Positions 17,759 to 29,186 of a DNA stretch of 64,000 bases are shown in pieces. The position numbers and the translations under genes are program-made. The notes beneath the pieces were generated by a model. It saw nothing but the letters and a program-made list of their open reading frames with translations, was not told where the DNA came from and did no database searches. Source of the stretch: Patescibacteria group bacterium (GTDB lineage Bacteria > Patescibacteriota > Minisyncoccia > UBA6257 > GWB1-50-10). Location: positions 55,035 through 119,034 of the forward strand of contig JBBTQX010000002.1 of the NCBI GenBank assembly GCA_038065455.1, read 5' to 3'. Each line of letters starts with the position of its first letter. Position 1 is the first letter of the stretch.

Positions 17759-17895
17759 CCAGGTAGTGAAAATGCGATTTAAAATCGCGATAATTTGATT
17801 AATTTTTATAATAGATGACCTTTTATGTATCTTTTTACAATGCTGGGCAATAAATACGACTTAAACTTGTTTCCAGTCGCATTTCTACTACCTGG
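17759..17895. mobile_element. TIR element copy 1 (empty, 137 bp)
   Basis: CCAGGTAGTGAAAATGCGA ... TCGCATTTCTACTACCTGG. Confidence 0.75.
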
Positions 17896-17979
17896 CATAA
17901 TTGCTGACTATTCTATTCAAAATCCGGAAGATTTGCAAATTCCTTTAGAAATCAGCCAATAACATATTTAAGTGAAGCG

Positions 17980-18123
17980 CGGCATGATAAAAAAGTGGGT
18001 AAAAGCTCCGCTTTTTATCGACATCACTCGGACAAAACAAAAACATTGTTTTTGCTTTGCTCCTCGCTCGTCGATATAAGACTTGGCCTAGCGGCCCGGA
18101 GCGCACACTTTTTTGGCGTGCCG
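17980..18123. repeat. Nested long hairpin containing a 28-bp repeat shared with tgt
   Basis: CGGCATG..AAAAAAGTG/CACTTTTTT..CGTGCCG outer stem; TAAGACTTGGCCTAGCGGCCCGGAGCGC (18077-18104) identical to 31106-31133. Confidence 0.7.
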
Positions 18124-18137
18124 AACCTAGCTTAGCG

Positions 18138-19988
18138 CTACTCTATCTTCGTGAGTGCGCTTTTCAAAGCATCTTTGAGACTCTCCACGCTCATTTCCTC
18201 TTTCGGATCTTTAGTTCTTTTTTCCTCATGAGGCTTGGATAATTCCGAAAGAGACACTCCGGGCCTTCCCGTTTCTTCCATAAAAGGTTTTTCTTCAAAG
18301 GCGGCCGAGTGTTGCGGCCGAGCAATTTCTGGCTTCACGAACGCAGGTTTGGGCTTGGGTTTGAAGACCTCGAAAGCTTTCTTTATCGGCTGGAAGTTTT
18401 CTCTCTTCGGAGCGGCTGGCGCCTGCGTCTTCTGCTGTTCGAATTCGATGCCTAAAACGGCTAAATCGGAGTATTGCTGATTCTGCACCTGGGGCGAAGG
18501 AGCGAATTCTCGGTCGGACGGAATCGGTTTCAATTCCCCCGCTTTTATCTTCGCGAGGCAATCCTGGCAGTAGACCGGCCGGCCCGGCTGAGGTTCAAAA
18601 GGAACGGTCGTTGTTTTCCCGCACGATGAGCAGACCACCTGGTATTTGCCAGAAGCGCTGATTGGCCCACTCGCGGTCATACCCGGTCCACCCATGCCAC
18701 TCCATTCGTTGATTTCTTTCTCCACCATCCAGGACGGCCGGGCATAGCGCTTTTTGGAATTTTCTATGATGGTATTCACGAGCTCGGAAGATGAGTTCAC
18801 TTTGAAACCCGGCAGGGTTTTGGCCGAAAATGGCCGGCTCGTCACGCCGTCCACCATCAGTTTCAGGTAGATGGTATAGTTCGGAAGATTGACGAAATCC
18901 GCCGGGACGAATTCCGGATCGAACTCACTTTCCAAAAATTCGGCATCCGCCGCGCCCACCCGGAAACAAATCATCGTGCCGACGTTGCCGAAAACCGCGT
19001 CGCGCACCTTGGTGGAAACATCGGTCACCAATTGGCCGATATATTGATGGGCCAGGATAAGGTCCAATCGATATTTTCTGGATTCGGAAAGAATACTGGC
19101 GAAGGAATCGGTCGCGAAGTTCTGGAATTCGTCCACATAAAGGTAGAAATCCACGCGCTCGTCTTCGGGCACACGCACGCGCTCCATCGAAGCAAGCTGG
19201 ATTTTTGTGATGAGCATCGCGCCCAAAAGCGCCGAGTTGTCTTCTCCGATCCGGCCCTTCGATACATTCACGATGAATATCTTTCCGGAATTCATTATGT
19301 CAAAGATATCGATCGTACTCTTGGATTGGCCGACGATATTCCGCACGACGGAAGTCGAAAGGAATTGGCCGACTTTGTTTTGAATCGGGGCGATGGCTTC
19401 GTTGCGGAACTGGTCTTTCCATTCCTCGTATTCGTTCAACCAAAAAGCCTTCACGACCGGGTCTTTGATGTTCCCAACGATTTTCTGGCGGTACTCTTTG
19501 TCCACAAGAAGCCGGGTGATGCCCAAAAGAGTGGAGCCGGGCGTGTCCAAGAGCGCGAGAATCGCGTTATTCAAAATATATTCCATACGCGCCGACCAAA
19601 CGCCGGACCAAATCTTCGTGAAGATGCTCATCAGGCCCGAAGCGGCCAAATGCTTGTATCTCGGGTCGGGCAGTTCCAAAACATTGAAGCCGATATGGGA
19701 CTCCGTGTCGGCCGGGTTGAAATAAATAACGTCGTCCATCCGCTCCTTCGGAATCTTTTCCAATATTCCTTCCGCCAATTCGCCGTGCGGGTCGATGACG
19801 CACAAACCCTCGCCGTTCGCGATATCCTGCGTAATGAGATTGTTCAGGAGGACGGACTTGCCCGTGCCGGTCTTGCCCACCACATACATATGCTGGCGGC
19901 GGTCCTTCCGCTTGATGCCAAAAAGCCGGTCGGCGTTCCGGAAATTCGTTCTCGCGAAATATGCGACGTCTTTATCTATTTCAGCCAT
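18138..19988 (-). CDS. TraD/TrwB/VirD4-like ATPase with C-terminal CxxC-x17-CxxC domain
   Basis: GKTGTGKS Walker A, IDPHG, YVDEFQNF, RKY.L.L.LAHQY; CSSC-x17-CQDC. Confidence 0.88.
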   Translation of the reverse strand: MAEIDKDVAYFARTNFRNADRLFGIKRKDRRQHMYVVGKTGTGKSVLLNNLITQDIANGEGLCVIDPHGELAEGILEKIPKERMDDVIYFNPADTESHIGFNVLELPDPRYKHLAASGLMSIFTKIWSGVWSARMEYILNNAILALLDTPGSTLLGITRLLVDKEYRQKIVGNIKDPVVKAFWLNEYEEWKDQFRNEAIAPIQNKVGQFLSTSVVRNIVGQSKSTIDIFDIMNSGKIFIVNVSKGRIGEDNSALLGAMLITKIQLASMERVRVPEDERVDFYLYVDEFQNFATDSFASILSESRKYRLDLILAHQYIGQLVTDVSTKVRDAVFGNVGTMICFRVGAADAEFLESEFDPEFVPADFVNLPNYTIYLKLMVDGVTSRPFSAKTLPGFKVNSSSELVNTIIENSKKRYARPSWMVEKEINEWSGMGGPGMTASGPISASGKYQVVCSSCGKTTTVPFEPQPGRPVYCQDCLAKIKAGELKPIPSDREFAPSPQVQNQQYSDLAVLGIEFEQQKTQAPAAPKRENFQPIKKAFEVFKPKPKPAFVKPEIARPQHSAAFEEKPFMEETGRPGVSLSELSKPHEEKRTKDPKEEMSVESLKDALKSALTKIE

Positions 19989-20012
19989 CTTACTTATCTA
20001 TTATACATCAAA

Positions 20013-20132
20013 TTACACGATTTCTTTCTGATAGCACTCCTCGCAAGCGATACGTTCATACCCCCATTCAGGCAGAATATAAGTCGTGATTTCTTTCTTG
20101 CAGTGTTCGCAAATTATTTCTTTTCAATCCAT
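20013..20132 (-). pseudogene. Zinc-ribbon (CxxC-x18-CxxC) gene fragment
   Basis: MD*KEIICEHCKKEITTYILPEWGYERIACEECYQKEIV*; TGA at codon 3. Confidence 0.5.
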
Positions 20133-20164
20133 ATATTTATATTATCTCCTTAAGATAACACGCC

Positions 20165-20521
20165 TTACATCGGAATTTTCTGTATTTCAAAGATTAATAG
20201 GCCCTTGACCACCAAAGCGGAAAGTTCCCGGGAAACCTTGCGAGCGGTGGCGAACAAAATTACCTTTTTGCCTGCGCTTATCAATTTTTGAATTGGGTCG
20301 GCAAAATCGCTATCTCCGCTTCATAGTACGAACGTTTCCGCGCTGTTTCTTTCACAATCAATGAGCATGTCAACGCCAATTTCCACGTCAAAATTGCATT
20401 TCATGTCCTGAATGAAATAATCCTTTTTCTTATTCATATCCTTCTCCAGGGTCGCCGTTTGGGACTCATAACCTATTGAACGGATATTTGATGATGAAAT
20501 TAATATTCTTTGCATGAACAT
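20165..20521 (-). pseudogene. Chimeric relic: KTSC N-terminus fused to NYN-domain C-terminus with internal stop
   Basis: SSSNIRSIGY (KTSC-like), then KCNFDVEIGVDM...FVL*SGDSDFADPIQKL (NYN motif, TGA where Trp is expected). Confidence 0.7.
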
Positions 20522-20593
20522 TTACGATTACTTGGATTATGCGAGATTTTCTTCAAAAAATAACCCGCTCGCGGGTTATTTTATTTTTCCGTC

Positions 20594-20788
20594 TTAACCG
20601 TTATCTCCGTCGCCGTCCTTCGAAGTTTCTTCGAATTCCAGTTCGGGTTCGGAAACTTTTTCATTTGTTTTTTTACCCTTTAAAATCATTCGGGAACAGT
20701 GAGCAATCCACATCCCTTTTATGATTCGATAAATCATAAAAATGGCTGCTATCGCGATTACGATGACCCACCATCGAAGGCTCATCAT
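20594..20788 (-). CDS. Small membrane protein
   Basis: N-terminal TM, acidic tail, followed by terminator hairpin near 20557-20590. Confidence 0.55.
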   Translation of the reverse strand: MMSLRWWVIVIAIAAIFMIYRIIKGMWIAHCSRMILKGKKTNEKVSEPELEFEETSKDGDGDNG

Positions 20789-20822
20789 TTTCTGGAATTA
20801 TACCATAGCTGATGCGTGTTCG

Positions 20823-21128
20823 TCAACCGATTATTCCCGACATCCATTCCTTATAGACCCGGTTTATCCGCTTTACGTCTATCGCGGCCACAATCGGGGT
20901 GGAATACGAGTGGTTCTCGTGAATCATATCCTCTATATCCTGAATCTTGGATTCATTCGTCTTGATGATAAGAGCGTACTCGTTTTCGCACTTCATCGCG
21001 CCCTCCCAGATATAGCAGGATTCAATCGGCCACATATTGACGCAGGCGGCCACTTTCCTTTCCACTATCAATTTGGAGAGTTTGCGCGCTTCTTCGATAT
21101 CTCGGCAGGTGGAGTAAATAAAAACCAT
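20823..21128 (-). CDS. cutA: Divalent-cation tolerance protein CutA
   Basis: AACVN, S.Y.WEG, HSYSTP, Y.EW. Confidence 0.92.
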   Translation of the reverse strand: MVFIYSTCRDIEEARKLSKLIVERKVAACVNMWPIESCYIWEGAMKCENEYALIIKTNESKIQDIEDMIHENHSYSTPIVAAIDVKRINRVYKEWMSGIIG

Positions 21129-21151
21129 ATATTTAATTATACTCCTTTTTT

Positions 21152-22606
21152 CTATATCAAAGGCTCCGGCGTGTCGTCCTTCTTGGCGGCCGCTCCGCCT
21201 CCGGAATTTCCCGTAATGGCCGCCTTTTCCTGGGCACTCCGGAAGATGCCTGCCTCCTCCTCGGCGAGAAGTTTCTTGGCCGCGTCGGCCAGAATGGTGT
21301 ATTTCGCCCGCGAAGCTTTAATAATTTTTTCTTTGAATGAGCTGTGGGGCGGCGGAAGAATCTTGAGCGTTTCGGCGGAGAAGGGGTCATAGGTCTCGCC
21401 ATCAATCGTCATTTTTATGTAAAATTCTTGCATCCCGAGATTGATCATATCCTTGGATTTGAATATCGGGGTCATTTCGGATTCCAATCGCGCGGCATCT
21501 TCGCCGCCCACTCGAAAAACGATAATACTCCCCGTATTACCCAAAACCGCCGCCTGAATCTGCGGAATCAATTGTTGCATATATTGATGCGCCACCGTAA
21601 GACAAAGACCGTACTTCCGTGCTTCGGAAAGTAGATTCTCGAAAGTTTCCGTCACGAGGCTATGGAACTCATCTATATAAAGATAGAAATCGTGCCGCTT
21701 GGATTCGGCCAGGGACGCCCGAGCCATGCCGGCCTGTTTTATTTTTGTAACGAACATCGAGCCGAAGAAACTGGAATTCTCCTCGCCCAGCTTTCCTTTT
21801 GAGAGATTGATGAGAATTATTTTCTTCTGATTCATCAGTTCTTCCAAGTTTATTTTATTCTCCTTCTGGCCGAAGATGTTCCGGAGGAGCGGATTAGAAA
21901 GAAACTGGCCGAGCTTGTTCACCAAAGGAATAATGGCATCGGTATCGAACTTCTCCGACCAGTCGGCGAACTCAATCGCCCAAAAGCGCTTGACCATATC
22001 GTCTTCGATGTACTCCACCACTTTCTGGCGGTAATTGCGGTCGTTCAAAAGCGAGATCATTCCACGCATGGTGGCGTAGGGATAGTCCAGCAGCGCAAGA
22101 CAGGTGAAGCGGAAAACGTGCTCCAGCCGTGGCGTCCAATTCGCGCCGAATTGTTTTTCCATCACCTCAATAAGGCCTTGGGTGAGCTGATGTTTGAAAG
22201 ATGGATCGATATTGGCGAGTGGATTGAATGAAACCGGGTATTCCGCGTCCGATGGGTCGATGATGCAGACGTCGTCGACGCGGTTTTCCGGAATGGCATC
22301 AAGAATTGCGTCAATCACGTCGCCGTGCGGGTCCATCAGGCACAATCCATAACCGTAGGCGATATCCTGACGGATTAGAAGCTCCAAAAGTTTGGACTTA
22401 CCCACGCCGCTCTTGCCGACTATGTAGATATGGCGCCGGCGATCCACCCGCTTAATGCCGAAAACGAAGCGCTTTTCCTCGAGGGCCGCGATGTAGTTCG
22501 TACGCCCGATATAGGAAATTTCACTCGCGTCGGCCCTGCCGTAGACCGGGAGTTCCGGCGGCGGCGGGGCATACTTGATTATTTGAAGCTTTCCGGCTTT
22601 TGGCAT
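21152..22606 (-). CDS. Second TraD/TrwB/VirD4-like ATPase
   Basis: GKSGVGKS, MDPHGD, YIDEFH, EARKYGL; paralog of 18138-19988. Confidence 0.88.
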   Translation of the reverse strand: MPKAGKLQIIKYAPPPPELPVYGRADASEISYIGRTNYIAALEEKRFVFGIKRVDRRRHIYIVGKSGVGKSKLLELLIRQDIAYGYGLCLMDPHGDVIDAILDAIPENRVDDVCIIDPSDAEYPVSFNPLANIDPSFKHQLTQGLIEVMEKQFGANWTPRLEHVFRFTCLALLDYPYATMRGMISLLNDRNYRQKVVEYIEDDMVKRFWAIEFADWSEKFDTDAIIPLVNKLGQFLSNPLLRNIFGQKENKINLEELMNQKKIILINLSKGKLGEENSSFFGSMFVTKIKQAGMARASLAESKRHDFYLYIDEFHSLVTETFENLLSEARKYGLCLTVAHQYMQQLIPQIQAAVLGNTGSIIVFRVGGEDAARLESEMTPIFKSKDMINLGMQEFYIKMTIDGETYDPFSAETLKILPPPHSSFKEKIIKASRAKYTILADAAKKLLAEEEAGIFRSAQEKAAITGNSGGGAAAKKDDTPEPLI

Positions 22607-22609
22607 TTA

Positions 22610-22921
22610 CCAGGCAGTAGAAATTCGACTATTTGTGGTTTTTATCATAAAAGTATTCTTTGAGCATGCGCTTTAGCAATCTGGCACCTTGGCTCGTCTT
22701 CAGATATTGCTCTCTTCTTGTTGCGTCCCTTGAATTCAAGTATGCCTCATAGTGTATCAATATCCAAGGTGCTTTTTTCTGGTTGAATAGCTCTTTTTGC
22801 GATTATGTTCTTTGAATCTTCTCTTTAAATCATTGGTATAGCCTATATACAACGAATTGTCTTTTAGACTCCGGAGAATGTAGATATAGAACATAATCGC
22901 GGTCGAATTTTCACTGCCTGG
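22610..22921 (-). mobile_element. TIR element copy 2 carrying a GIY-YIG nuclease gene
   Basis: CCAGGCAGTAGAAATTCGAC (22610-22629) ... GTCGAATTTTCACTGCCTGG (22902-22921). Confidence 0.75.
22629..22894 (-). pseudogene. GIY-YIG endonuclease (88 aa if -1 frameshifted); pseudogene or programmed frameshift
   Basis: MFYIYILRSLKDNSLYIGYTNDLKRRFKEHN...RKK then, in the -1 frame, APWILIHYEAYLNSRDATRREQYLKTSQG...; shift at A_AAA_AAG 22778-22772. Confidence 0.85.
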
Positions 22922-22927
22922 TGAAGT

Positions 22928-23443
22928 TTATTTTAAAGCGCCGATTTCTTTCAGGAACGATTCGAATATATTCAGTATTTCTTTCGCTTCGCTTTCTTTT
23001 ATTTCAAAGCCGGCCGTGTGCACCAAATCGTTTCGGATGCGATGGGCCCGCCAAAGATTTTCCAAGGTTTTCAGTTCCTTCGGGTTGAGCTTCTGGAGCT
23101 TGTCGGCGATATGCTCCCCTTCCAAACCCAGATCGTCGAGCGCTTCGCCCACCAGATTGTCAGCCGCCATTATCGCGAGCGTAAAAGAATGAGGCGGAGC
23201 GGAATGGGCCTTTTCCAATATCTTTTCCCAAACCTTCGCGTATCTTTCCGTATCGAATTCGCTTTGGGCGGCTTCCGTTCCTTCTTCTTTTTTCTTTCTC
23301 AGCGAACTGATTAAATCGGGGCGGTATTTGAGCGCCTTACGAAGTACAATAAAAAAACCAACCAGAAAAACGACGTCCAAAATAATGAATATGGTGCGAG
23401 CGGTGTAATAAAATCCCTCCAATTTTCCGAAAAAATCAGCCAT
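22928..23443 (-). CDS. Membrane-anchored hypothetical protein
   Basis: N-terminal TM; AH.IRNDLVH (RxxxxH, HEPN-like) motif. Confidence 0.75.
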   Translation of the reverse strand: MADFFGKLEGFYYTARTIFIILDVVFLVGFFIVLRKALKYRPDLISSLRKKKEEGTEAAQSEFDTERYAKVWEKILEKAHSAPPHSFTLAIMAADNLVGEALDDLGLEGEHIADKLQKLNPKELKTLENLWRAHRIRNDLVHTAGFEIKESEAKEILNIFESFLKEIGALK

Positions 23444-24862
23444 TTATTTGTATCTTTCCAATTCTTCTTCTTCCCCGAAAATTGGTAATCCCGAAGGCGG
23501 ACCAGCCCGCTTGCTCTCAAGATGTTTCAAATGGGGTTCGGTAAGCACAGTTGAAGTCGGAATATGGAAAAGCGTAGCGAGGCACTTCGTATTCATAATG
23601 AAACGCTTGGAAGTAGTATTCCAATTAAAAAGATAGGAGGTGAGCATTCTGCCGATGAGCGTTTCGACCGGTACTTCGCGCTTCCGGTAATTTAAAAGCA
23701 TCCTGGCTTTTCGGAACTCAAGCCGGGTACCGGGGAAAACGTAGGGTTTTTTCCAAATCATTGTTCTGGTGGCCACTCCATTATTTTGGCCGAAAGAATT
23801 CATATCCAAGTTGGAATATTGATTGAAAGCGCCCACGATACCTTTGCGGGGAAAATTATCGGAAAAGGTTTTTTTATTCGAGAAGTATACAAAACGTATC
23901 AAGGTGTTGAAGGCGGGCTTCGAAAGATTTTCTTCCACGGCCTTCAAAACATCGGCTTGGCCGGGCGAACGCATCATAGCCATTTCATACTCTTCGTTTC
24001 CGCCCGTAGGCAATGCGCGACCCTTCACCTTCCTCGTTTGCGGCTCTCTTAATTTTTTTAAATCGTCCTCCCATTTATCGTCCCAATTCTCCGAGCCGGC
24101 CGGAGCGATAAGGAACTGAATGCCGACGATTTCCGTCTTCTTCAATTTTCCCAGAATTTCCAAAAAAGATGAAATAGGGTCAAAACTTTTTTCCTCGGCT
24201 TCGTTCTCAAAATCGGTGTAGGTTTTTATCGGATACATATCGTCTTTTTTGAGTGTCATTTCGGTGCCCCACATATCCAAGTCTTTTTCGTAAACCTCAT
24301 AAACCTTGTCGGGCAACTGGTCGACATAATCCGGCACCTCGACGATATCCAAGCCGGGATAATAAGAGAAGAAAGCCGCCTCTATCAAGTTTCTCAACTT
24401 GGCGTAACACCGAATATAGAGATGGATCTCGCCGCCGAAGCTGACCATTTCAAGCGAATACCATCGGGGCACTTCGCCGTCCCAATATTTTTCGCGAATA
24501 TCATCCGGCGCATTCCTTAAGGAATGGAATGCCGCTAAAACCTGCTCCATTGCCTGAGAACTCTTTTCGATGAGGCGAGGTATCCTAAGCTCGAGAAAAA
24601 CCCATTTAATATCAGTCTTAAATATCTCCTGGCGCCAATGAAGCCAGGTCTCGAGAAAAAGTCGGAAAATTACGATGAAAAACCATAGCCACCAAGTCCG
24701 TTTCAAAAAATCAATTACGACCGTGCCGAGAACGGAGGGAGCAACAAGGGGTACGACGAGCGCCCCGGCCGCGCCGGAAATGAAGAGTATCCACCAGGTC
24801 TCTTCTTTGCTGAACGCCTCTTCGAGAAAAGAGCCGAGCTCCTTCAAAAAATTACCTAACAT
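23444..24862 (-). CDS. Conserved membrane protein associated with TraD-like ATPases
   Basis: Two N-terminal TMs, SLEMVS.GGEI, LATLFHIP; co-oriented with the ATPases. Confidence 0.78.
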   Translation of the reverse strand: MLGNFLKELGSFLEEAFSKEETWWILFISGAAGALVVPLVAPSVLGTVVIDFLKRTWWLWFFIVIFRLFLETWLHWRQEIFKTDIKWVFLELRIPRLIEKSSQAMEQVLAAFHSLRNAPDDIREKYWDGEVPRWYSLEMVSFGGEIHLYIRCYAKLRNLIEAAFFSYYPGLDIVEVPDYVDQLPDKVYEVYEKDLDMWGTEMTLKKDDMYPIKTYTDFENEAEEKSFDPISSFLEILGKLKKTEIVGIQFLIAPAGSENWDDKWEDDLKKLREPQTRKVKGRALPTGGNEEYEMAMMRSPGQADVLKAVEENLSKPAFNTLIRFVYFSNKKTFSDNFPRKGIVGAFNQYSNLDMNSFGQNNGVATRTMIWKKPYVFPGTRLEFRKARMLLNYRKREVPVETLIGRMLTSYLFNWNTTSKRFIMNTKCLATLFHIPTSTVLTEPHLKHLESKRAGPPSGLPIFGEEEELERYK

Positions 24863-24898
24863 TGATTTCTTTTTATTTTACCTTATTAGAGAAATAAC

Positions 24899-24933
24899 AA
24901 AAACCCCGCCAATCCATAGACTGGCGGGGTTTC
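24899..24933 (-). terminator. Intrinsic terminator
   Basis: AAACCCCGCCA/TGGCGGGGTTT hairpin with U-tract. Confidence 0.7.
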
Positions 24934-24944
24934 CGAACATTGGC

Positions 24945-25964
24945 TTAGGCCTCGCGAACCTGGTATTTACCGCTATCCAATCGCTTGAAATACCGGCGAT
25001 TTTGGAGATTAAGAAGAATGGTATTCTCCTTGAGAAGGCGCTGTTCGTTCACGAGACGCACCACCGTCGCGGATTCCAAAGAACCGTGTTTTTTCAGGAG
25101 CCGAGCGATGACCTCCCGCACCGTACCGGGTTCGTAGCCTTTTTCCTTCAGGGCATAAACGCCGCGCCCGACGAGAACGAAGCGATTGTCCTTGATGAGC
25201 TCGTTGTGCACTGTTTGAACGTGCGCCGGTTTCTTATCCAAACCGAACTTGTTGATATTCTTCGCGATATCCCCGAAATGAAGAGGCCGTTCGTGTTTCT
25301 TCAAAACCAGATAAACTTTGTCGCGGATCGTCTTAGGCTCGATCTCGGGCCATTCTTTCAAACCGAAATCGCCGAAGATGTTCGTGCCAAAATGTTTCGG
25401 GATGGAAAGAAGATGGGCGGAAACCAAATCTTTCATATGATTCAAATAAAGTTTCTTGTTTAAAATTTCTTCCTTCTTGCCGGACTTCAGGAAATTTGTG
25501 ACCGTCTTTATGAAATCATGGAATTTTTCTTTGGATTTTTCATCGGAGAACCAGAAGGCTTGCGCGTTGTCGTCGTTCTTCGAATAAGAGGGTACACCCG
25601 CCACGAGAAGAATGAAGCGCAGTTTCTGGTCGGCGTGCTTCACATCCGCTCCAATCTCAAGGCCGTGAATAAGGTCGTTCATAAAATTGTCGTCGCGCTT
25701 CACGCCGCCCACACCCGCCAGGTGCTTCCTGGCATAATCCAAAATGACCGCCGCTTCTTCTTTTACCTTCTTCGAAAGTTTTTTAATCGCCTGCTCCTCT
25801 ATCTGGCGCACCCGCTCGCGGGTGATTTTGAGTTCATCGCCGATGAATTGGAGTGTCGAGCGCTCGCCGGTCTTCAAACCGAAACGGCCGACAATCACCC
25901 GGCGCTGTTTGGGGCTGAAATCGGCGAGAAGATTATCTATTAATTGGTCGAGATTTTGTTTCAT
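24945..25964 (-). CDS. Sigma-70 region 4 HTH plus winged-helix domain protein
   Basis: RFGL...TLQ.IG.EL.ITRERVRQIE; C-terminal RFVLVGRGVYALKE. Confidence 0.85.
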   Translation of the reverse strand: MKQNLDQLIDNLLADFSPKQRRVIVGRFGLKTGERSTLQFIGDELKITRERVRQIEEQAIKKLSKKVKEEAAVILDYARKHLAGVGGVKRDDNFMNDLIHGLEIGADVKHADQKLRFILLVAGVPSYSKNDDNAQAFWFSDEKSKEKFHDFIKTVTNFLKSGKKEEILNKKLYLNHMKDLVSAHLLSIPKHFGTNIFGDFGLKEWPEIEPKTIRDKVYLVLKKHERPLHFGDIAKNINKFGLDKKPAHVQTVHNELIKDNRFVLVGRGVYALKEKGYEPGTVREVIARLLKKHGSLESATVVRLVNEQRLLKENTILLNLQNRRYFKRLDSGKYQVREA

Positions 25965-26008
25965 ATTTTAATGATGATAACGATAGCATAATGGTTTTAC
26001 GGTGTCAA

Positions 26009-26076
26009 CCAGGTAGTGAAAATTCGGCCGCTTCGCACAGTCTGCCTTTGGCAGAAGCCGAATTTCTACTACCTGG
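26009..26076. mobile_element. TIR element copy 3 (empty, 68 bp)
   Basis: CCAGGTAGTGAAAATTCGGC ... GCCGAATTTCTACTACCTGG. Confidence 0.75.
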
Positions 26077-26092
26077 TCAATCCCCCATCAGA

Positions 26093-26983
26093 CTATTTTT
26101 TCTGCCAAAGATACAACAGCGGGCTGGCCACGAATATGGAGGAATAGGTCCCGAAAACCGTTCCCACGAGAATAGTGAGAATGAAGAAGAATATGGAAGC
26201 CGGGCCGAAAATAAGCAGGGTCACGAGCACAATAACGAGTGTGAGCGTGGTGTTTATGGAACGGGCCATGGTTTCGTTCACGCTGAAATTAATGATTTCG
26301 CCCAAGTCGAATCTTTTGCCTCGATTCAAAGTCAGGTTCTCCCGAATGCGGTCGAAGACCACGATGGTGTCATGGACGGAAAAACCCATCACGACAAGCA
26401 GTGCCACGATGAAATTCGTGTCTATTTCAATTCCTTTCCAGTGTCCCAAAATGGCCAAAAGGCCGGCCGGGATACTCACGTCGTGCAGGAGTGTCAAAAG
26501 AGTTACGATACCATACTTCCAAGATTTGACCGGTTCCGAAACCTTTCGGAAAGCCCAAGCAATGAAAAGCGATATACCGAACATTACGAGCGCCACGGCC
26601 CAAATGGATTTATTTTTGAGTTCCGAACCGATAGCCGGACCGATCGAGGAGTAACTTTTTTCGGATACCTCGCCGAATTCTTTTGCGAGCTCTTCCTTAT
26701 AGTTCCGCCTCTGCTCTTCGCTCAAGCTCGGCAGGCGAACAAGGAAAGTTCCGTCATCGGAACTCTTCACGCTCACTGTACTTCCCTCTCCCGCCGTTTT
26801 TTGCAAAGCCTCCTTGATCGCCGTTTCGGTCACATCGCTCTTTCCAAAACTCATCTGCCATTCCGTGCCGCCTTTAAGGTCAATGCCGGGCCGGAGGCCG
26901 AAGATTATAATGAGCGCCCAAGCCGCGACAACCATAAGTCCAGAGAATCCTAAAAAGTAATTTTTATTCGCTATCAGATTCAT
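26093..26983 (-). CDS. secF: Protein translocase subunit SecF
   Basis: GIDLKGG, IGPAIG.EL, GFSVHDTIVVFDRIREN, GTYSSIFVA. Confidence 0.96.
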   Translation of the reverse strand: MNLIANKNYFLGFSGLMVVAAWALIIIFGLRPGIDLKGGTEWQMSFGKSDVTETAIKEALQKTAGEGSTVSVKSSDDGTFLVRLPSLSEEQRRNYKEELAKEFGEVSEKSYSSIGPAIGSELKNKSIWAVALVMFGISLFIAWAFRKVSEPVKSWKYGIVTLLTLLHDVSIPAGLLAILGHWKGIEIDTNFIVALLVVMGFSVHDTIVVFDRIRENLTLNRGKRFDLGEIINFSVNETMARSINTTLTLVIVLVTLLIFGPASIFFFILTILVGTVFGTYSSIFVASPLLYLWQKK

Positions 26984-27106
26984 CCCGTTAGAGATAGGAT
27001 ACGCTTAACAAGCGTATCCGTGATATTTTTGTTTGTTCGACTGATTTTGATTGTTTTGATTTTATGGAAGTCATATTATTTATACTTTGAAAATCTCTAA
27101 CGGGAT
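26982..27106. repeat. Inverted-repeat element between secD and secF
   Basis: ATCCCGTTAGAGAT (26982-26995) ... ATCTCTAACGGGAT (27093-27106), internal GGATACGCTT/AAGCGTATCC hairpin. Confidence 0.7.
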
Positions 27107-28386
27107 TCATTATCTTCAACAGATTTATTATCTTGACCAATAAATATCCGAAGCATTGTGCGCGTGATGGTAATAGCCGAGAACATACTGATCAAAACTC
27201 CGATTAAAAGTGTAAGAGCAAAACCGCGCACGAAACTCGAAGTGAAATAATAAAGGACGGTCGCTGTAATAATGGTCGAGATATTGGAATCCCGGATGGA
27301 GGTCCAAGCCCGTCGGAAACCCTCTTCAATGGCGGAATAGTGGGATAATCCCTTTTTAAGTTCTTCCTTCGTCCTTTCGAAAACGAGAATATTCGCGTCC
27401 ACCGCCATACCAATAGACAGAATGAAGCCAGCGATACCCGAAAGAGTCATCGTTATGGGAACGATTTTGAAGATTGCGAGCGTCAAAGCCACGTACATTA
27501 AAAGCGCGAAAGCGGCGAATACTCCCAAACCGCGGTAATAAATAATCATAAAAAGGAGGATCGCGAGCGTTCCGACAATGCCCGCGAAAACGGCCTTATC
27601 GAAGGCTTCCTTTCCGAAATCGGGGCTTACTGTCCGCTGATTCACGAGTGTAATCGGCGCGGGCAAAGCTCCCGCGTTGAATCTTTCCGCGAGCTGGCGA
27701 GCCGTATCGACGGTAAAATTTCCGCTGATTTGAGCCTTGCCGCCCGTGATTTTCTGCTGGACCGTCGGCATCTCAATCAATTGATTATCCAAAAATATAG
27801 CGAGCGGCTTTCCTACATTCTTTCCGGTCAGATCGGCGAAAATTTCCGCTCCTGCGCTCGAAAAAGTGAGGTCTACTTGGGGCTGGCGCGTCACGGAATC
27901 AAAACTTATCTGCGCGCTCACAACATAACGGCCATTCAATTCCGTTGGAATAAATTGAACAGTGGAACTCGCCTCAAGCGAACCCGTTGCGGGAGCGATT
28001 ACTTCGCGAAAATCCAAAAAAGGCGTAGCACCAATCTCTTTAATAGCCTCATCGATATCCTTTATTCCGGCCAACTCCACCGCCAGCCTGGTCGATTCTC
28101 CTGCTTTCTCGACGAAAACTCGCGGTTCGCTCACTCCGAATAAATTGACGCGCTTTTCGATGACATCCCTGAGACCACTGACCACCGAATCCCGATCGGC
28201 GAAACCGACTTTCGAGAGATCCACTTCATACGTCAAAAGACTGCCGCCGGCCAAATCCAGGCCGAAGTTCCAGGGCCGGAAGGAGCTTATTTTCTGCCAC
28301 AAGGGTTCGTAGGAAAAAACAGCGGCGAAGGCGGCTACCGCCACGAGAAGAATCAATACTGCTACCAGTCGCTTCTTGGAAATCAT
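27097..28386 (-). CDS. secD: Protein translocase subunit SecD
   Basis: GLDLAGG, RVNLFGVSEP, GMAVDANILVFER, DSNIST, VRGFALTL. Confidence 0.96.
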   Translation of the reverse strand: MISKKRLVAVLILLVAVAAFAAVFSYEPLWQKISSFRPWNFGLDLAGGSLLTYEVDLSKVGFADRDSVVSGLRDVIEKRVNLFGVSEPRVFVEKAGESTRLAVELAGIKDIDEAIKEIGATPFLDFREVIAPATGSLEASSTVQFIPTELNGRYVVSAQISFDSVTRQPQVDLTFSSAGAEIFADLTGKNVGKPLAIFLDNQLIEMPTVQQKITGGKAQISGNFTVDTARQLAERFNAGALPAPITLVNQRTVSPDFGKEAFDKAVFAGIVGTLAILLFMIIYYRGLGVFAAFALLMYVALTLAIFKIVPITMTLSGIAGFILSIGMAVDANILVFERTKEELKKGLSHYSAIEEGFRRAWTSIRDSNISTIITATVLYYFTSSFVRGFALTLLIGVLISMFSAITITRTMLRIFIGQDNKSVEDNESR

Positions 28387-28464
28387 TTCCCCAAAGTATA
28401 TAGCAAGCTCGTTTTCAAATCAAATAAAAAACCGAGTTATTGAAACTCGGTTTCGATAAATTAA

Positions 28465-28968
28465 TCACCCTCCAAAATTCCTCTTTCTTTTATAAGAGGG
28501 GAACTTATGGAAAGACGCTATGTGCGGTATATTTCCCATTTGTTCCTCCAATATATCCAGCATATCGAAGGAATCGAGATGTTGAAAGAAAGAAAATGTT
28601 TTTTCCGCTTCTCCAACGGCAAGTGGTAATCCTTCATCCATCACCATTAATAGTTCGGTTTTGTTTTTTTTCGAAGCCAGTTCCCTATCGATTTTTTCTT
28701 CCACTTCGGAAAAAAAATTATCCTGATCGGGAATATCGTCATCGGAAACATACCTGTGAGGATCGTGGCAAAAAACGAATTCATCGTCGTCAAAGTCAGG
28801 AATATTGAATTCCGAATTTGACGGAACAAGATTGCGAAGAGCCAGGCATTTCCGACCGGAGTTTTCGTTCGGCGGCCGCTTCAAGTTGATTTTTTCTTTT
28901 GCCAGCGAGAGCGTTTCTTTCGTCGGGAAGAAAACTTCTTTCGATACTACCAACATGGATTTTTCCAT
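28465..28968 (-). CDS. Hypothetical acidic protein
   Basis: ORF with GGAGG upstream of the MEKS start; terminator hairpin near 28426-28454. Confidence 0.55.
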   Translation of the reverse strand: MEKSMLVVSKEVFFPTKETLSLAKEKINLKRPPNENSGRKCLALRNLVPSNSEFNIPDFDDDEFVFCHDPHRYVSDDDIPDQDNFFSEVEEKIDRELASKKNKTELLMVMDEGLPLAVGEAEKTFSFFQHLDSFDMLDILEEQMGNIPHIASFHKFPSYKRKRNFGG

Positions 28969-29117
28969 GACATTTCCTCCTATTATTAGGGTTGGTTGAT
29001 AAGGGTGGATTATTGATTTTTTGTGGTACTCATTCAATTATACCCCCGAATTTTCAATAATATCAATTGGGTGTACTGGCTTTTATTTGAAAATATTGAC
29101 GAATTTCACCGGGTTCA

Positions 29118-29186
29118 CCAGGTAGTAGAAATGCGATCAGTTCGCTTTGCGAACTAAACTTGAATCATCGCATTTTCACTACCTGG
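29118..29186. mobile_element. TIR element copy 4 (empty, 69 bp)
   Basis: CCAGGTAGTAGAAATGCGAT ... ATCGCATTTTCACTACCTGG; supplies the stop codon of the M23 gene. Confidence 0.75.

Follow-up and report, generated by a model that had tools for sequence, protein, structure and literature searches.

Mobile hairpin-ended elements in a 654-kb bacterial genome, some enclosing a single small GIY-YIG nuclease gene

The 654-kb genome described here comes from a tiny groundwater bacterium and contains many short hairpin-ended insertions. Empty sites and target duplications in genomes of the same genus demonstrate that these elements are mobile. They are probably a class of hairpin-ended mobile elements with an autonomous form of approximately 280-320 bp, carrying one Ssn-like GIY-YIG gene, and a set of short derivatives. 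Two families, TIR1 and TIR2, were recognized, each with nuclease-bearing and short copies within the one genome, so that the MITE-like derivatives foreseen by the original prediction are found in both. Five copies lie in the window, which is the whole 64,000-nt stretch of DNA that was analyzed (Table 1). The genes adjoining them are efp, secD, secF, and those for two VirD4/TraG-like ATPases and an M23 peptidase.

Table 1. Hairpin-ended elements in the window.
Element	Position	Strand	Description
TIR1 copy 1	17759..17895	.	137 bp; GA arm at the low end
TIR1 copy 2	22610..22921	-	312 bp; 20-nt arms around one GIY-YIG gene
TIR1 copy 3	26009..26076	.	68 bp; 19-bp stem around a small GC hairpin
TIR2 copy	26982..27106	-	125 bp; at the secD/secF junction; not in the original prediction
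TIR1 copy 4	29118..29186	.	69 bp; arm provides the TAG that ends the M23 peptidase frame

The four TIR1 elements had been predicted from the letters of the window, and their ends were recovered exactly. The TIR1 end pattern has 9 matches in the window at no more than 2 mismatches, 8 of which are exact and form the four pairs, compared with a chance expectation of 0.64 (sd 0.79); a count of 9 was reached in 0/100 shuffles. Genome-wide, a loose-pattern search made 32 pairs, from which 7 were discarded as spurious, leaving 25 paired TIR1 copies. Most fall into size classes of 61-73 bp (n = 7) and 120-148 bp (n = 16), and the remaining copies are one that spans a scaffold gap and the 312-bp copy with the GIY-YIG gene. 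Interiors that do not hold the nuclease consist of either a small GC hairpin or an AT-rich stretch of ~90 nt with a short reading frame.

A single GTGAAAAT arm and a single GTAGAAAT arm bound every TIR1 copy examined. For the pairing counts, the gap copy and a copy with an arm indel were set aside, which left 23 of the 25 copies. Positions 10-11 (GA/AG) are mismatched in 23/23 copies, as expected from the conserved mismatch originally proposed, and the other arm positions are Watson-Crick paired in 386/391 cells. Positions 3, 6, 14, 15, 16, and 19 occur in two or three alternative paired states, which indicates compensatory change and bears out the predicted covariation between the two ends of a copy. 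Single arm mismatches show no strand preference for G-U (3 on one strand vs 2 on the other). The arms pair as hairpin ends: for each of the eight strands folded (z -3.9 to -8.5), 0/200 shuffles folded equally well, and the z values were -5.9 and -6.4 for copy 3 as single-stranded DNA and -8.5 and -8.0 for copy 4. The GA/AG arm swap is also present in other genomes (L028, L045, L245, L229, L240, and L243). TIR1 arms contain the motif GTAG.

The empty sites and target duplications called for by the original prediction as a check on mobility were found in same-genus genomes. One of these, G004, lacks four of the five window copies, namely TIR1 copies 1, 2, and 4 and the TIR2 copy. The efp gene, on the minus strand, has its ATG 1 nt from the end of copy 1, as predicted; CATA occurs at both ends of this copy and once in the empty site of G004, GGACATAATTGC, which identifies a target duplication. 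Copy 4, whose arm was correctly predicted to supply a stop codon, is missing from G004 along with 11 and 22 additional flanking bases, and the borders are therefore approximate. The terminal AT of the window TIR2 copy forms two letters of the secF ATG, and the secD frame stops at a TAG inside the other arm; in G004 an ATGA joins the two genes, with the secD stop overlapping the start of secF. Copy 3 has TCAA on each side; G004 carries it at the same position, where its GA arm has decayed, which indicates an older insertion. A nuclease-bearing TIR2 element at the dnaB-recR junction is missing from G001, G003, and G004. Duplication length varies: it is 1 nt at recR and usually 2 nt at TIR2 sites, and for TIR1 the placement of the ends makes it 2 or 4 nt. 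Inverted ends, target duplication, and presence or absence among relatives, by which insertion sequences and MITEs are recognized, were thus all found.

The TIR2 family comprises 18 copies in the genome. Its two longer copies, of 282 bp, each enclose a GIY-YIG gene only and differ from one another at 1/282 bases. The insertions lie on ATG(A) start codons, and the host ATG, rebuilt from the terminal AT of the element and a duplicated G, overlaps the element end by 2 nt in 16/18 copies. At the rebuilt ATG stands the TGA stop of the nuclease gene or, 4 nt upstream, the TAA of a short in-element frame. Among the loci with both arms starting ATCCCG (n = 34), ATGA precedes and GAA follows the element in 24, and a 2-bp direct repeat is present in 28. 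The repeats are intergenic and surround genes, and the elements lie between co-directional genes. Mid-size copies are oriented toward the downstream gene in 13/14 cases in TIR2, and in TIR1 the GA-arm end faces the downstream gene in 11/16.

The nuclease gene in the longer copies (one in TIR1, two in TIR2) encodes a single-domain GIY-YIG protein of 85-94 aa. In TIR1 copy 2 it has the predicted layout, with the ATG (22894-22892) 7 nt inside the 20-nt arm and the TAG (22631-22629) overlapping the opposite arm. The reading frame is broken near 22771-22779, at an A-run, and the PF01541 match is split in two (E 8.9e-11 and 0.003). One additional C after 22771, present in contigs from two other runs, places both parts in the same frame. 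Across loci, the end-bounded proteins are 72-94 aa long and contain the nuclease domain alone, with PF01541 matches over the cut-off. Among 26 of them, Y5, G18, R26, H30, and other residues are invariant, and Y16 and E63 are at least 90% conserved. An NCBIfam search with the nuclease gave nothing over the cut-off. The closest solved structures by sequence are of the UPF0213/YhbQ type (PDB 1zg2 and 1ywl; E 2.6e-14 and 1.1e-08), and no Ssn entry was among the PDB matches; the UPF0213/YhbQ-like clade in these genomes, which includes C7:26543-26761, differs in having no inverted ends (scores 5-8). A GIY-YIG homing endonuclease of the I-TevI or Seg type was considered and rejected, as there is no separate DNA-binding domain and TIGR01453 falls far under its cut-off.

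The original prediction staked itself on an association between GIY-YIG homologues and inverted ends, which proved very frequent. In 41 related genomes, a flanking inverted repeat (score at least 13) was found at 36/118 small GIY-YIG genes compared with 0/256 controls at shifted positions, the other 82 genes being without inverted ends. In a public genome scan the ends were present at 70/80 loci compared with 1/217 controls, and in a phylum-wide sample at 13/30 compared with 0/86. No gene other than that of the nuclease lies between the ends at any of these positive loci, which gives no support to the suggestion of a cassette shuttle for small genes. Within the autonomous copy we found no known transposase (DDE, HUH, serine or tyrosine recombinase), but only the GIY-YIG gene. 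Proteins with the inverted-repeat label group together on the tree, with 12 changes of the label compared with a shuffled mean of 30.3 (0/500 shuffles as low), and the end type follows the nuclease clade. Many nuclease homologues lie at contig ends.

These features suggest how the elements may work. The nuclease gene would sit in the loop of a long hairpin built from the element's own two ends, and the short derivatives retain the ends, with the gene replaced by a small GC hairpin (61-76 bp) or by an AT-rich stretch of ~90 nt and a small hairpin (113-148 bp). The nuclease may recognize the single-stranded form of the hairpin, on just one strand, and cut beside it, as Ssn enzymes do; the invariant GA/AG mismatch of TIR1-type ends could mark the strand. 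A hydrolytic nuclease cannot join DNA by itself, so that other factors are needed, and host repair, ligation, or copying would complete excision, insertion, or retention. Selection for mobility would then preserve end pairing rather than the exact end sequence, which would explain the arm covariation. Host genes would still be translated, by coupling across the stop-next-to-start layout. We infer that the nuclease itself drives movement. As counterpoints, the TIR1 nuclease gene carries a frameshift in this assembly, yet there are 25 TIR1 copies, and action in trans by other mobile-element enzymes that the genome encodes is conceivable. A bolder version, which we put forward tentatively as possible, is an autonomous transposable element of ~280-320 bp whose sole gene, for an Ssn-type GIY-YIG nuclease of less than 95 aa, lies in the loop of its own terminal hairpin. 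Such an element would move by single-stranded hairpin cleavage and host repair, target ATG(A) starts or stop-start junctions, borrow host start signals and return translation by stop-start coupling, and seed gene-less hairpin derivatives; it would have spread through most candidate-phyla bacteria and records labelled as other phyla and one archaeon. We know of no smaller autonomous transposable element.

Alternatively, the elements could be ordinary MITEs that depend in trans on a conventional transposase, present or lost (of the rve-type IS, RAYT-like Y1, or recombinase kind). The GIY-YIG protein would then be cargo or a "homing" nuclease that secures retention by cleaving empty sites, in the manner of TnpB in IS605-type elements. 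The genome does encode candidates, including two RAYT-like Y1 genes (Y1_Tnp), two large serine recombinases, and an rve-type IS in two copies with a third rve match; target duplications are typical of DDE transposition, the broken TIR1 nuclease coexists with its 25 copies, and the GTAG in the arms is a hallmark of REP sequences. However, the ends of the rve-type IS (TGTATGAGGCCAC...) are unrelated to TIR1 and TIR2, and the repeats beside the Y1 genes (C3:12877 and C10:7617) differ from both families and are restricted to those genes. As the original prediction required, the TIR ends matched no other IS or RAYT system of the genome, whether Y1 genes, rve-type IS, or serine recombinases, and no DDE_Tnp_1 or TnpB-type match was found in it. 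To our knowledge HUH enzymes leave no target duplication, whereas duplications are present here. The nuclease as the only gene between the ends at loci elsewhere also argues against movement in trans, and the way the ends covary is what one would expect if a paired structure were recognized, rather than duplex DNA at each end. We regard this explanation as unlikely.

A host-domesticated system, as proposed for Neisseria, appears improbable as a full account. The nuclease would trim incoming single-stranded DNA at hairpins and tune natural transformation, and the repeats would no longer move. This corresponds to the function published for SsnA in N. meningitidis (PMC11893778) and to the intergenic position of the repeats around genes, and some insertions are old, as is evident from the copy that G004 also has. 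Against it stand the four window copies and the nuclease-bearing copy missing from same-genus genomes, the near-identical copies at two loci, and the exact landing on start codons, which indicates insertion specificity. Domestication and mobility can nevertheless hold together. That the elements act mainly as RNA, as intercistronic stem-loops for stability, processing, or translational coupling with covariation reflecting RNA pairing, is suggested by the orientation of mid-size copies, by frames that traverse the element and stop beside the host ATG, and by the co-directional neighbors, but is very improbable, since it leaves the spread to many sites, the duplications, and the nuclease cargo unexplained, there is no Rfam match at gathering score, G-U mismatches show no strand preference, and an RNA run gave only sparse contigs. 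A promoter scan gave no support for a promoter role.

The 2025 work on Ssn enzymes left open the role of repeats and nuclease outside Neisseria and the mobility of the nuclease-between-repeats unit (PMC11893778). This genome and its relatives provide comparative evidence that such units move, leaving short duplications, and reveal a striking landing rule in which a start codon is hit and then rebuilt. Should the element encode no factor other than the nuclease, transposition would proceed by a hydrolytic single-strand nuclease and host repair, without a transposase. No insertion sequence would be nearly as small, and a substantial part of the intergenic repeats and contig breaks of ultra-small bacterial genomes would be accounted for. 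The many natural nuclease-hairpin pairs are potential single-stranded DNA tools.

Among known systems, MITEs and Correia/NIME-type repeats are 60-150 bp long and intergenic, have inverted ends and target duplications, and are co-transcribed with neighbors. The full-length partner here differs from theirs in encoding a nuclease of less than 100 aa rather than a DDE transposase, and covariation marks its ends as a paired stem. REP/REPIN hairpins are recognized as single-stranded DNA, and a single RAYT (HUH Y1) gene is flanked by its own repeats. Here the fold and chemistry of the enzyme differ and duplications occur; membership in this group was rejected, as the two RAYT-like genes of the genome carry other, purely local repeats.

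The Ssn/SRM system is closer. Ssn proteins are small GIY-YIG nucleases of a single domain, whose cleavage of single-stranded DNA takes place beside cognate hairpins (Chenal et al. 2025, Nat Commun, PMC11893778); the hairpin is bound as single-stranded DNA only and cut a few nucleotides upstream on one strand only, and the genes are flanked by cognate hairpin repeats (NTS/SRM) that are also scattered genome-wide. The authors raised a likeness to insertion sequences, with mobility as a hypothesis only. A small GIY-YIG nuclease with cognate flanking hairpin repeats is thus an already published kind, and the claim of a new kind of element falls. Target duplications, empty sites, start-codon targeting, and fixed-size derivatives are unreported in the available sections of PMC11893778, whose supplements may list variants. 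Membership there requires either a blastp match to N. meningitidis SsnA at E < 1e-10 and 75% cover or a top CDD hit to cd10448. The published SRM search motif has 1 site in the whole genome, at no element, compared with 0-6 (mean 2.4) in simulated genomes (n = 10), which is chance level. In common with Ssn are a single GIY-YIG domain of ~90 aa with catalytic Tyr, Tyr, Arg, and Glu, a hairpin-forming repeat on both sides of the gene that is dispersed mostly between genes, and co-variation of nuclease-repeat pairs. The spacing of Y6, Y17, and E64, mutated in SsnA, equals that of Y5, Y16, and E63 here, and the repeat termini are alike (...TCATTCCCG...CGGGAAT in dRS3/NTS and ...TCATCCCG...CGGGAT in TIR2). 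Whereas a separate 20-50 nt hairpin stands at each flank in the Ssn system (PMC11893778), the flanks here are the two arms of one hairpin, with a 14-24 bp stem and the gene in the loop. By the published description (domain, residues, and flanking repeats), the nuclease is most like the Ssn type.

The four hairpin-ended elements of the original prediction (the TIR1 family; window copies 1 to 4 at 17759-17895, 22610-22921, 26009-26076, and 29118-29186) were found at exactly these positions, with inverted ends of 19-20 nt of the claimed form. The end pattern matched the window at 9 places, 8 of them exactly, against an expectation of 0.64, and none of 100 shuffled sequences reached 9 matches. Across the surrounding 654-kb genome (10 contigs), a loose pattern gave 32 pairs; after 7 were removed as spurious, 25 paired copies remained. 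The asymmetry described for the ends held for all copies: a GA arm faces an AG arm in each. When arm pairing was counted in 23 copies, leaving out the gap-spanning copy and one with an arm indel, positions 10-11 were mismatched in all 23, and the other positions were paired in 386 of 391 cells. The claimed covariation between the two ends was also borne out, with two or three alternative paired states at six arm positions. Folded as single-stranded DNA, both strands of four window elements gave z scores of -3.9 to -8.5, and no fold as good was obtained from 200 shuffles. The nuclease gene of copy 2 is frameshifted in this assembly; an extra C after 22771, present in one contig each of two other sequencing runs (X7 and X9), places it in a single frame. 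The frameshift is not universal.

An inverted-repeat survey revealed another family, TIR2, whose ends read ATCCCGTTAGA(G/A)A and which has 18 paired copies in this genome. Its arms also covary across copies, for example AGAGACA/TGTCTCT and AGAAACA/TGTTTCT. The two nuclease-bearing copies lie on separate contigs and differ at 1 of 282 bases. This genome thus holds two end families, both mostly gene-less, with one nuclease-bearing copy in TIR1 and two in TIR2. Immediately upstream of one nuclease-bearing TIR2 copy is a third type of hairpin, with arms loosely resembling those of TIR1.

Repeat families, mobile-element genes, and neighbouring features (G000, this genome; G062, a bin labelled Woesearchaeota)
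Feature	Number	Location	Length	Remarks
TIR1, short	7		61-73 bp	stem enclosing a small GC-rich hairpin
TIR1, longer gene-less	16		120-148 bp	
TIR1, spanning scaffold gap	1			
TIR1, nuclease	1	window 22610-22921	312 bp	encloses GIY-YIG gene
TIR2, mid-size	14		113-143 bp	
TIR2, short	2		74-76 bp	
TIR2, nuclease	2		282 bp	each around an intact 87-aa GIY-YIG gene
Of the above, TIR2 copy in the window	1	window 26982-27106		between secD and secF
Third hairpin type		G000:C2:35534-35611	78 bp	arms ATTATACCCGGTATTACAA
Short repeat	2	window 18077-18124; G000:C2:9981-10028	~47 nt	starts TAAGACTTGGCC, T-run at end
Segment replaced in G004		window 19990-21255	~1.27 kb	between two VirD4/TraG-like coupling-ATPase genes (18141-19988, 21155-22606)
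Small GIY-YIG gene, no inverted ends		G000:C8:92151-92357		just upstream of a tRNA gene
Tandem TIR2 copies		G062:C143:5260-5663		280-bp nuclease element, 2 nt, 122-bp gene-less copy
RAYT-like Y1_Tnp genes	2	G000:C3:12877-13119; G000:C10:7617-7847		open frames of 235 and 248 aa
rve-type IS, identical copies	2	G000:C8:60505-61618, 81221-82334	1114 bp	ends unrelated to TIR1 and TIR2
Third rve match	1	end of contig C7		

The original prediction had called for empty sites and target duplications to be sought in relatives, and both were found. The same-genus genome G004 shares synteny with the window (78-90% identity). Copy 1 is absent there, and a single CATA occupies the site, whereas CATA flanks both ends of the element in the window. 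Copy 4 is missing along with some additional flanking bases, and the window TIR2 copy is missing from a locus where secD and secF overlap as ATGA. Copy 2 is likewise absent, with a spacer too diverged for borders to be drawn. Copy 3 is common to both genomes while its arm has decayed in G004, so the insertions differ in age. At the dnaB-recR junction, a nuclease-bearing TIR2 copy is absent from three same-genus genomes (G001, G003, and G004), and the flanks lie 1 base apart in G004. Duplications are short, with a length that varies with the placement of the element end: mostly 2 nt for TIR2 (with AT counted as element), 1 nt at recR, and 2 or 4 nt for TIR1. The four sequencing runs all consisted of contigs. 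In these, joints at the arms had short sides of 20-27 letters, which stem from the repeats and do not bear on excision; contigs from the RNA run were sparse.

Two other differences from G004 were seen in the window. The segment between the coupling-ATPase genes is replaced there by 19 nt. The TAAGACTTGGCC repeat sits in a stretch of ~190 nt missing from G004; dozens of copies, 90-100% identical, occur in the same-genus genomes G001-G004, especially in G002, and the repeat is much better conserved than the surrounding coding DNA.

TIR2 elements land on start codons. In 16 of the 18 TIR2 copies (mid-size 13/14, nuclease 2/2, short 1/2), the ATG of a frame of at least 60 aa shares exactly 2 nt with the element end. 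In a wide set of 34 loci with both arms starting ATCCCG, ATGA precedes and GAA follows the element in 24, and 28 carry a 2-bp direct repeat. The resulting layout is ATGA / ATCCCG...CGGGAT / GAA (slashes mark element borders), in which the original host ATG stands before the element and a new ATG is formed from the terminal AT and the duplicated G. The gene of the nuclease copies ends in GGA TGA, so that its stop overlaps the rebuilt ATG. The captured host ATG serves as the start of the nuclease frame, which then runs across the element end (MNPVR...), at 11 of 70 loci. Five 125-bp TIR2 copies carry a frame of ~40 codons that starts at the captured ATG, crosses the whole element, and closes on a TAA of the far arm, 4 nt upstream of the rebuilt ATG; in the 11 of 14 copies that were read in the correct orientation, a frame ends at this TAA. 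Among the 16 long TIR1 copies, 11 have a start codon 1-10 nt beyond the GA-arm end; in TIR1 copies inspected by eye, a TAA immediately outside the GA arm closes a short frame. Such a stop-next-to-start design would keep host translation running through coupling.

The proposed association of GIY-YIG homologues with flanking repeats was also recovered across genomes. Small GIY-YIG genes (PF01541) occur in 40 of 41 same-family genomes; no genome has more than 15 matches, and many of these lie at contig ends. We scored the best inverted repeat around 118 small frames, with windows shifted outward as controls; a score of at least 13 was reached by 36 of the 118 (35 unique loci, one having been fetched twice) and by none of 256 controls. 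The end-bounded elements in related genomes measure 260-362 bp, mostly 278-313 bp, and their ends vary by clade, mostly starting (A)(T)CCC. A tree of 107 proteins showed clustering of the inverted-end label, with 12 changes where shuffles averaged 30.3 and none of 500 was as low. TIR2-type ends marked a clade of 16 proteins, 14 with ends, and a clade of 61 proteins, 55 without ends, contains the YhbQ-like gene of this genome. Scanning one genome per species for the TIR2-clade protein returned at least 570 relatives; the same ends were present at 70 of the best 80, giving elements of 273-292 bp, and at 1 of 217 controls. By the submitters' record titles, the matches listed come from many candidate-phyla lineages and also from Omnitrophota, Planctomycetota, Nitrospirota, Desulfobacterota, Clostridia, Elusimicrobiota, and one Woesearchaeota bin. 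This cross-phylum spread rests on those titles, at least one of which looks doubtful; a record labelled Gammaproteobacteria is grouped with genomes of 0.5-2.1 Mb, so that errors in some labels or bins are possible. Of 301 genomes sampled from the phylum of genome G060, 214 contained a relative, with roughly 800 matches in the sample; among the best 30 loci, 13 were bounded by ends, compared with none of 86 controls. At one locus (L245), an intact gene lies between TIR1 ends identical to those in the window, GA/AG included, and the GA/AG swap recurs in a related end at three further loci.

The Woesearchaeota-labelled bin holds two TIR2 copies in tandem, on a 5.8-kb contig that may be mis-binned. 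In this genome, the GIY-YIG gene at G000:C8:92151-92357, which has no inverted ends, stands just before a tRNA gene, and a partial copy of the 5' part of this tRNA lies upstream of the nuclease gene. Plasmids were of no help (3 records of the YazA type, 41-44% identity), viral contigs gave no support for phages as carriers (5 loci, 37-51% identity), and a protein atlas held similar small GIY-YIG clusters only.

Other readings of the repeats were weighed. A purely RNA role leaves the spread and the duplications unexplained, and Rfam gave no match at the gathering score. A promoter role for the 113-148 bp copies was dropped: scanning for the consensus gave 23 sites, compared with 15.8 (sd 3.4) in shuffles, and no site is positioned to drive downstream genes from within the elements. 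The ends might also match a known transposition system encoded elsewhere in the genome; the ends or repeats of the other mobile-element enzymes present there proved unrelated to TIR1 and TIR2 or confined to their own genes. Around each RAYT-like (HUH Y1) gene, a short repeat particular to that gene occurs on both sides and within the coding region and nowhere else in the genome, and a RAYT link was rejected on this ground; a link to the rve-type IS was rejected on its unrelated ends. This genome also encodes two large serine recombinases and gave no match to DDE_Tnp_1 or TnpB-type enzymes. An integron attC reading was dropped given mixed orientations and only one Xer-like tyrosine recombinase.

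The observation is real, and its reading as a mobile, nuclease-linked element largely right; the claim of a new kind does not stand, as such a system was published earlier under the name Ssn/SRM (Chenal et al. 2025, PMC11893778). We found no paper on an inverted-end transposon carrying only a GIY-YIG gene and no later paper on SsnA. In the available part of that study, Ssn is a 94-aa single-domain GIY-YIG nuclease that binds its hairpin repeat (NTS/SRM) as single-stranded DNA only and cleaves one strand a few nt upstream; in N. meningitidis it lowers transformation by DNA bearing the repeat. Such repeats flank 42% of homologues on both sides, and the authors note that the repeat-gene-repeat layout resembles an insertion sequence and may be domesticated. 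The elements described here share with Ssn the protein size, the catalytic spacing, the flanking cognate hairpin repeats, and the dispersal, and their termini resemble dRS3/NTS. The end-bounded nucleases probably belong to the Ssn family. What is new, relative to the available part of the paper, is the variant and its insertion logic, and both merit bench work. Each flank forms a hairpin of its own in the published system, whereas here the two flanks pair with each other as arms of a single long hairpin whose loop contains the gene. These elements are missed by the search motif of that study (1 match in the genome; 0-6 by chance), mobility signatures are evident in them, and the start-codon landing rule is new, although Supplementary Data 3-5 of the same study may list such variants.
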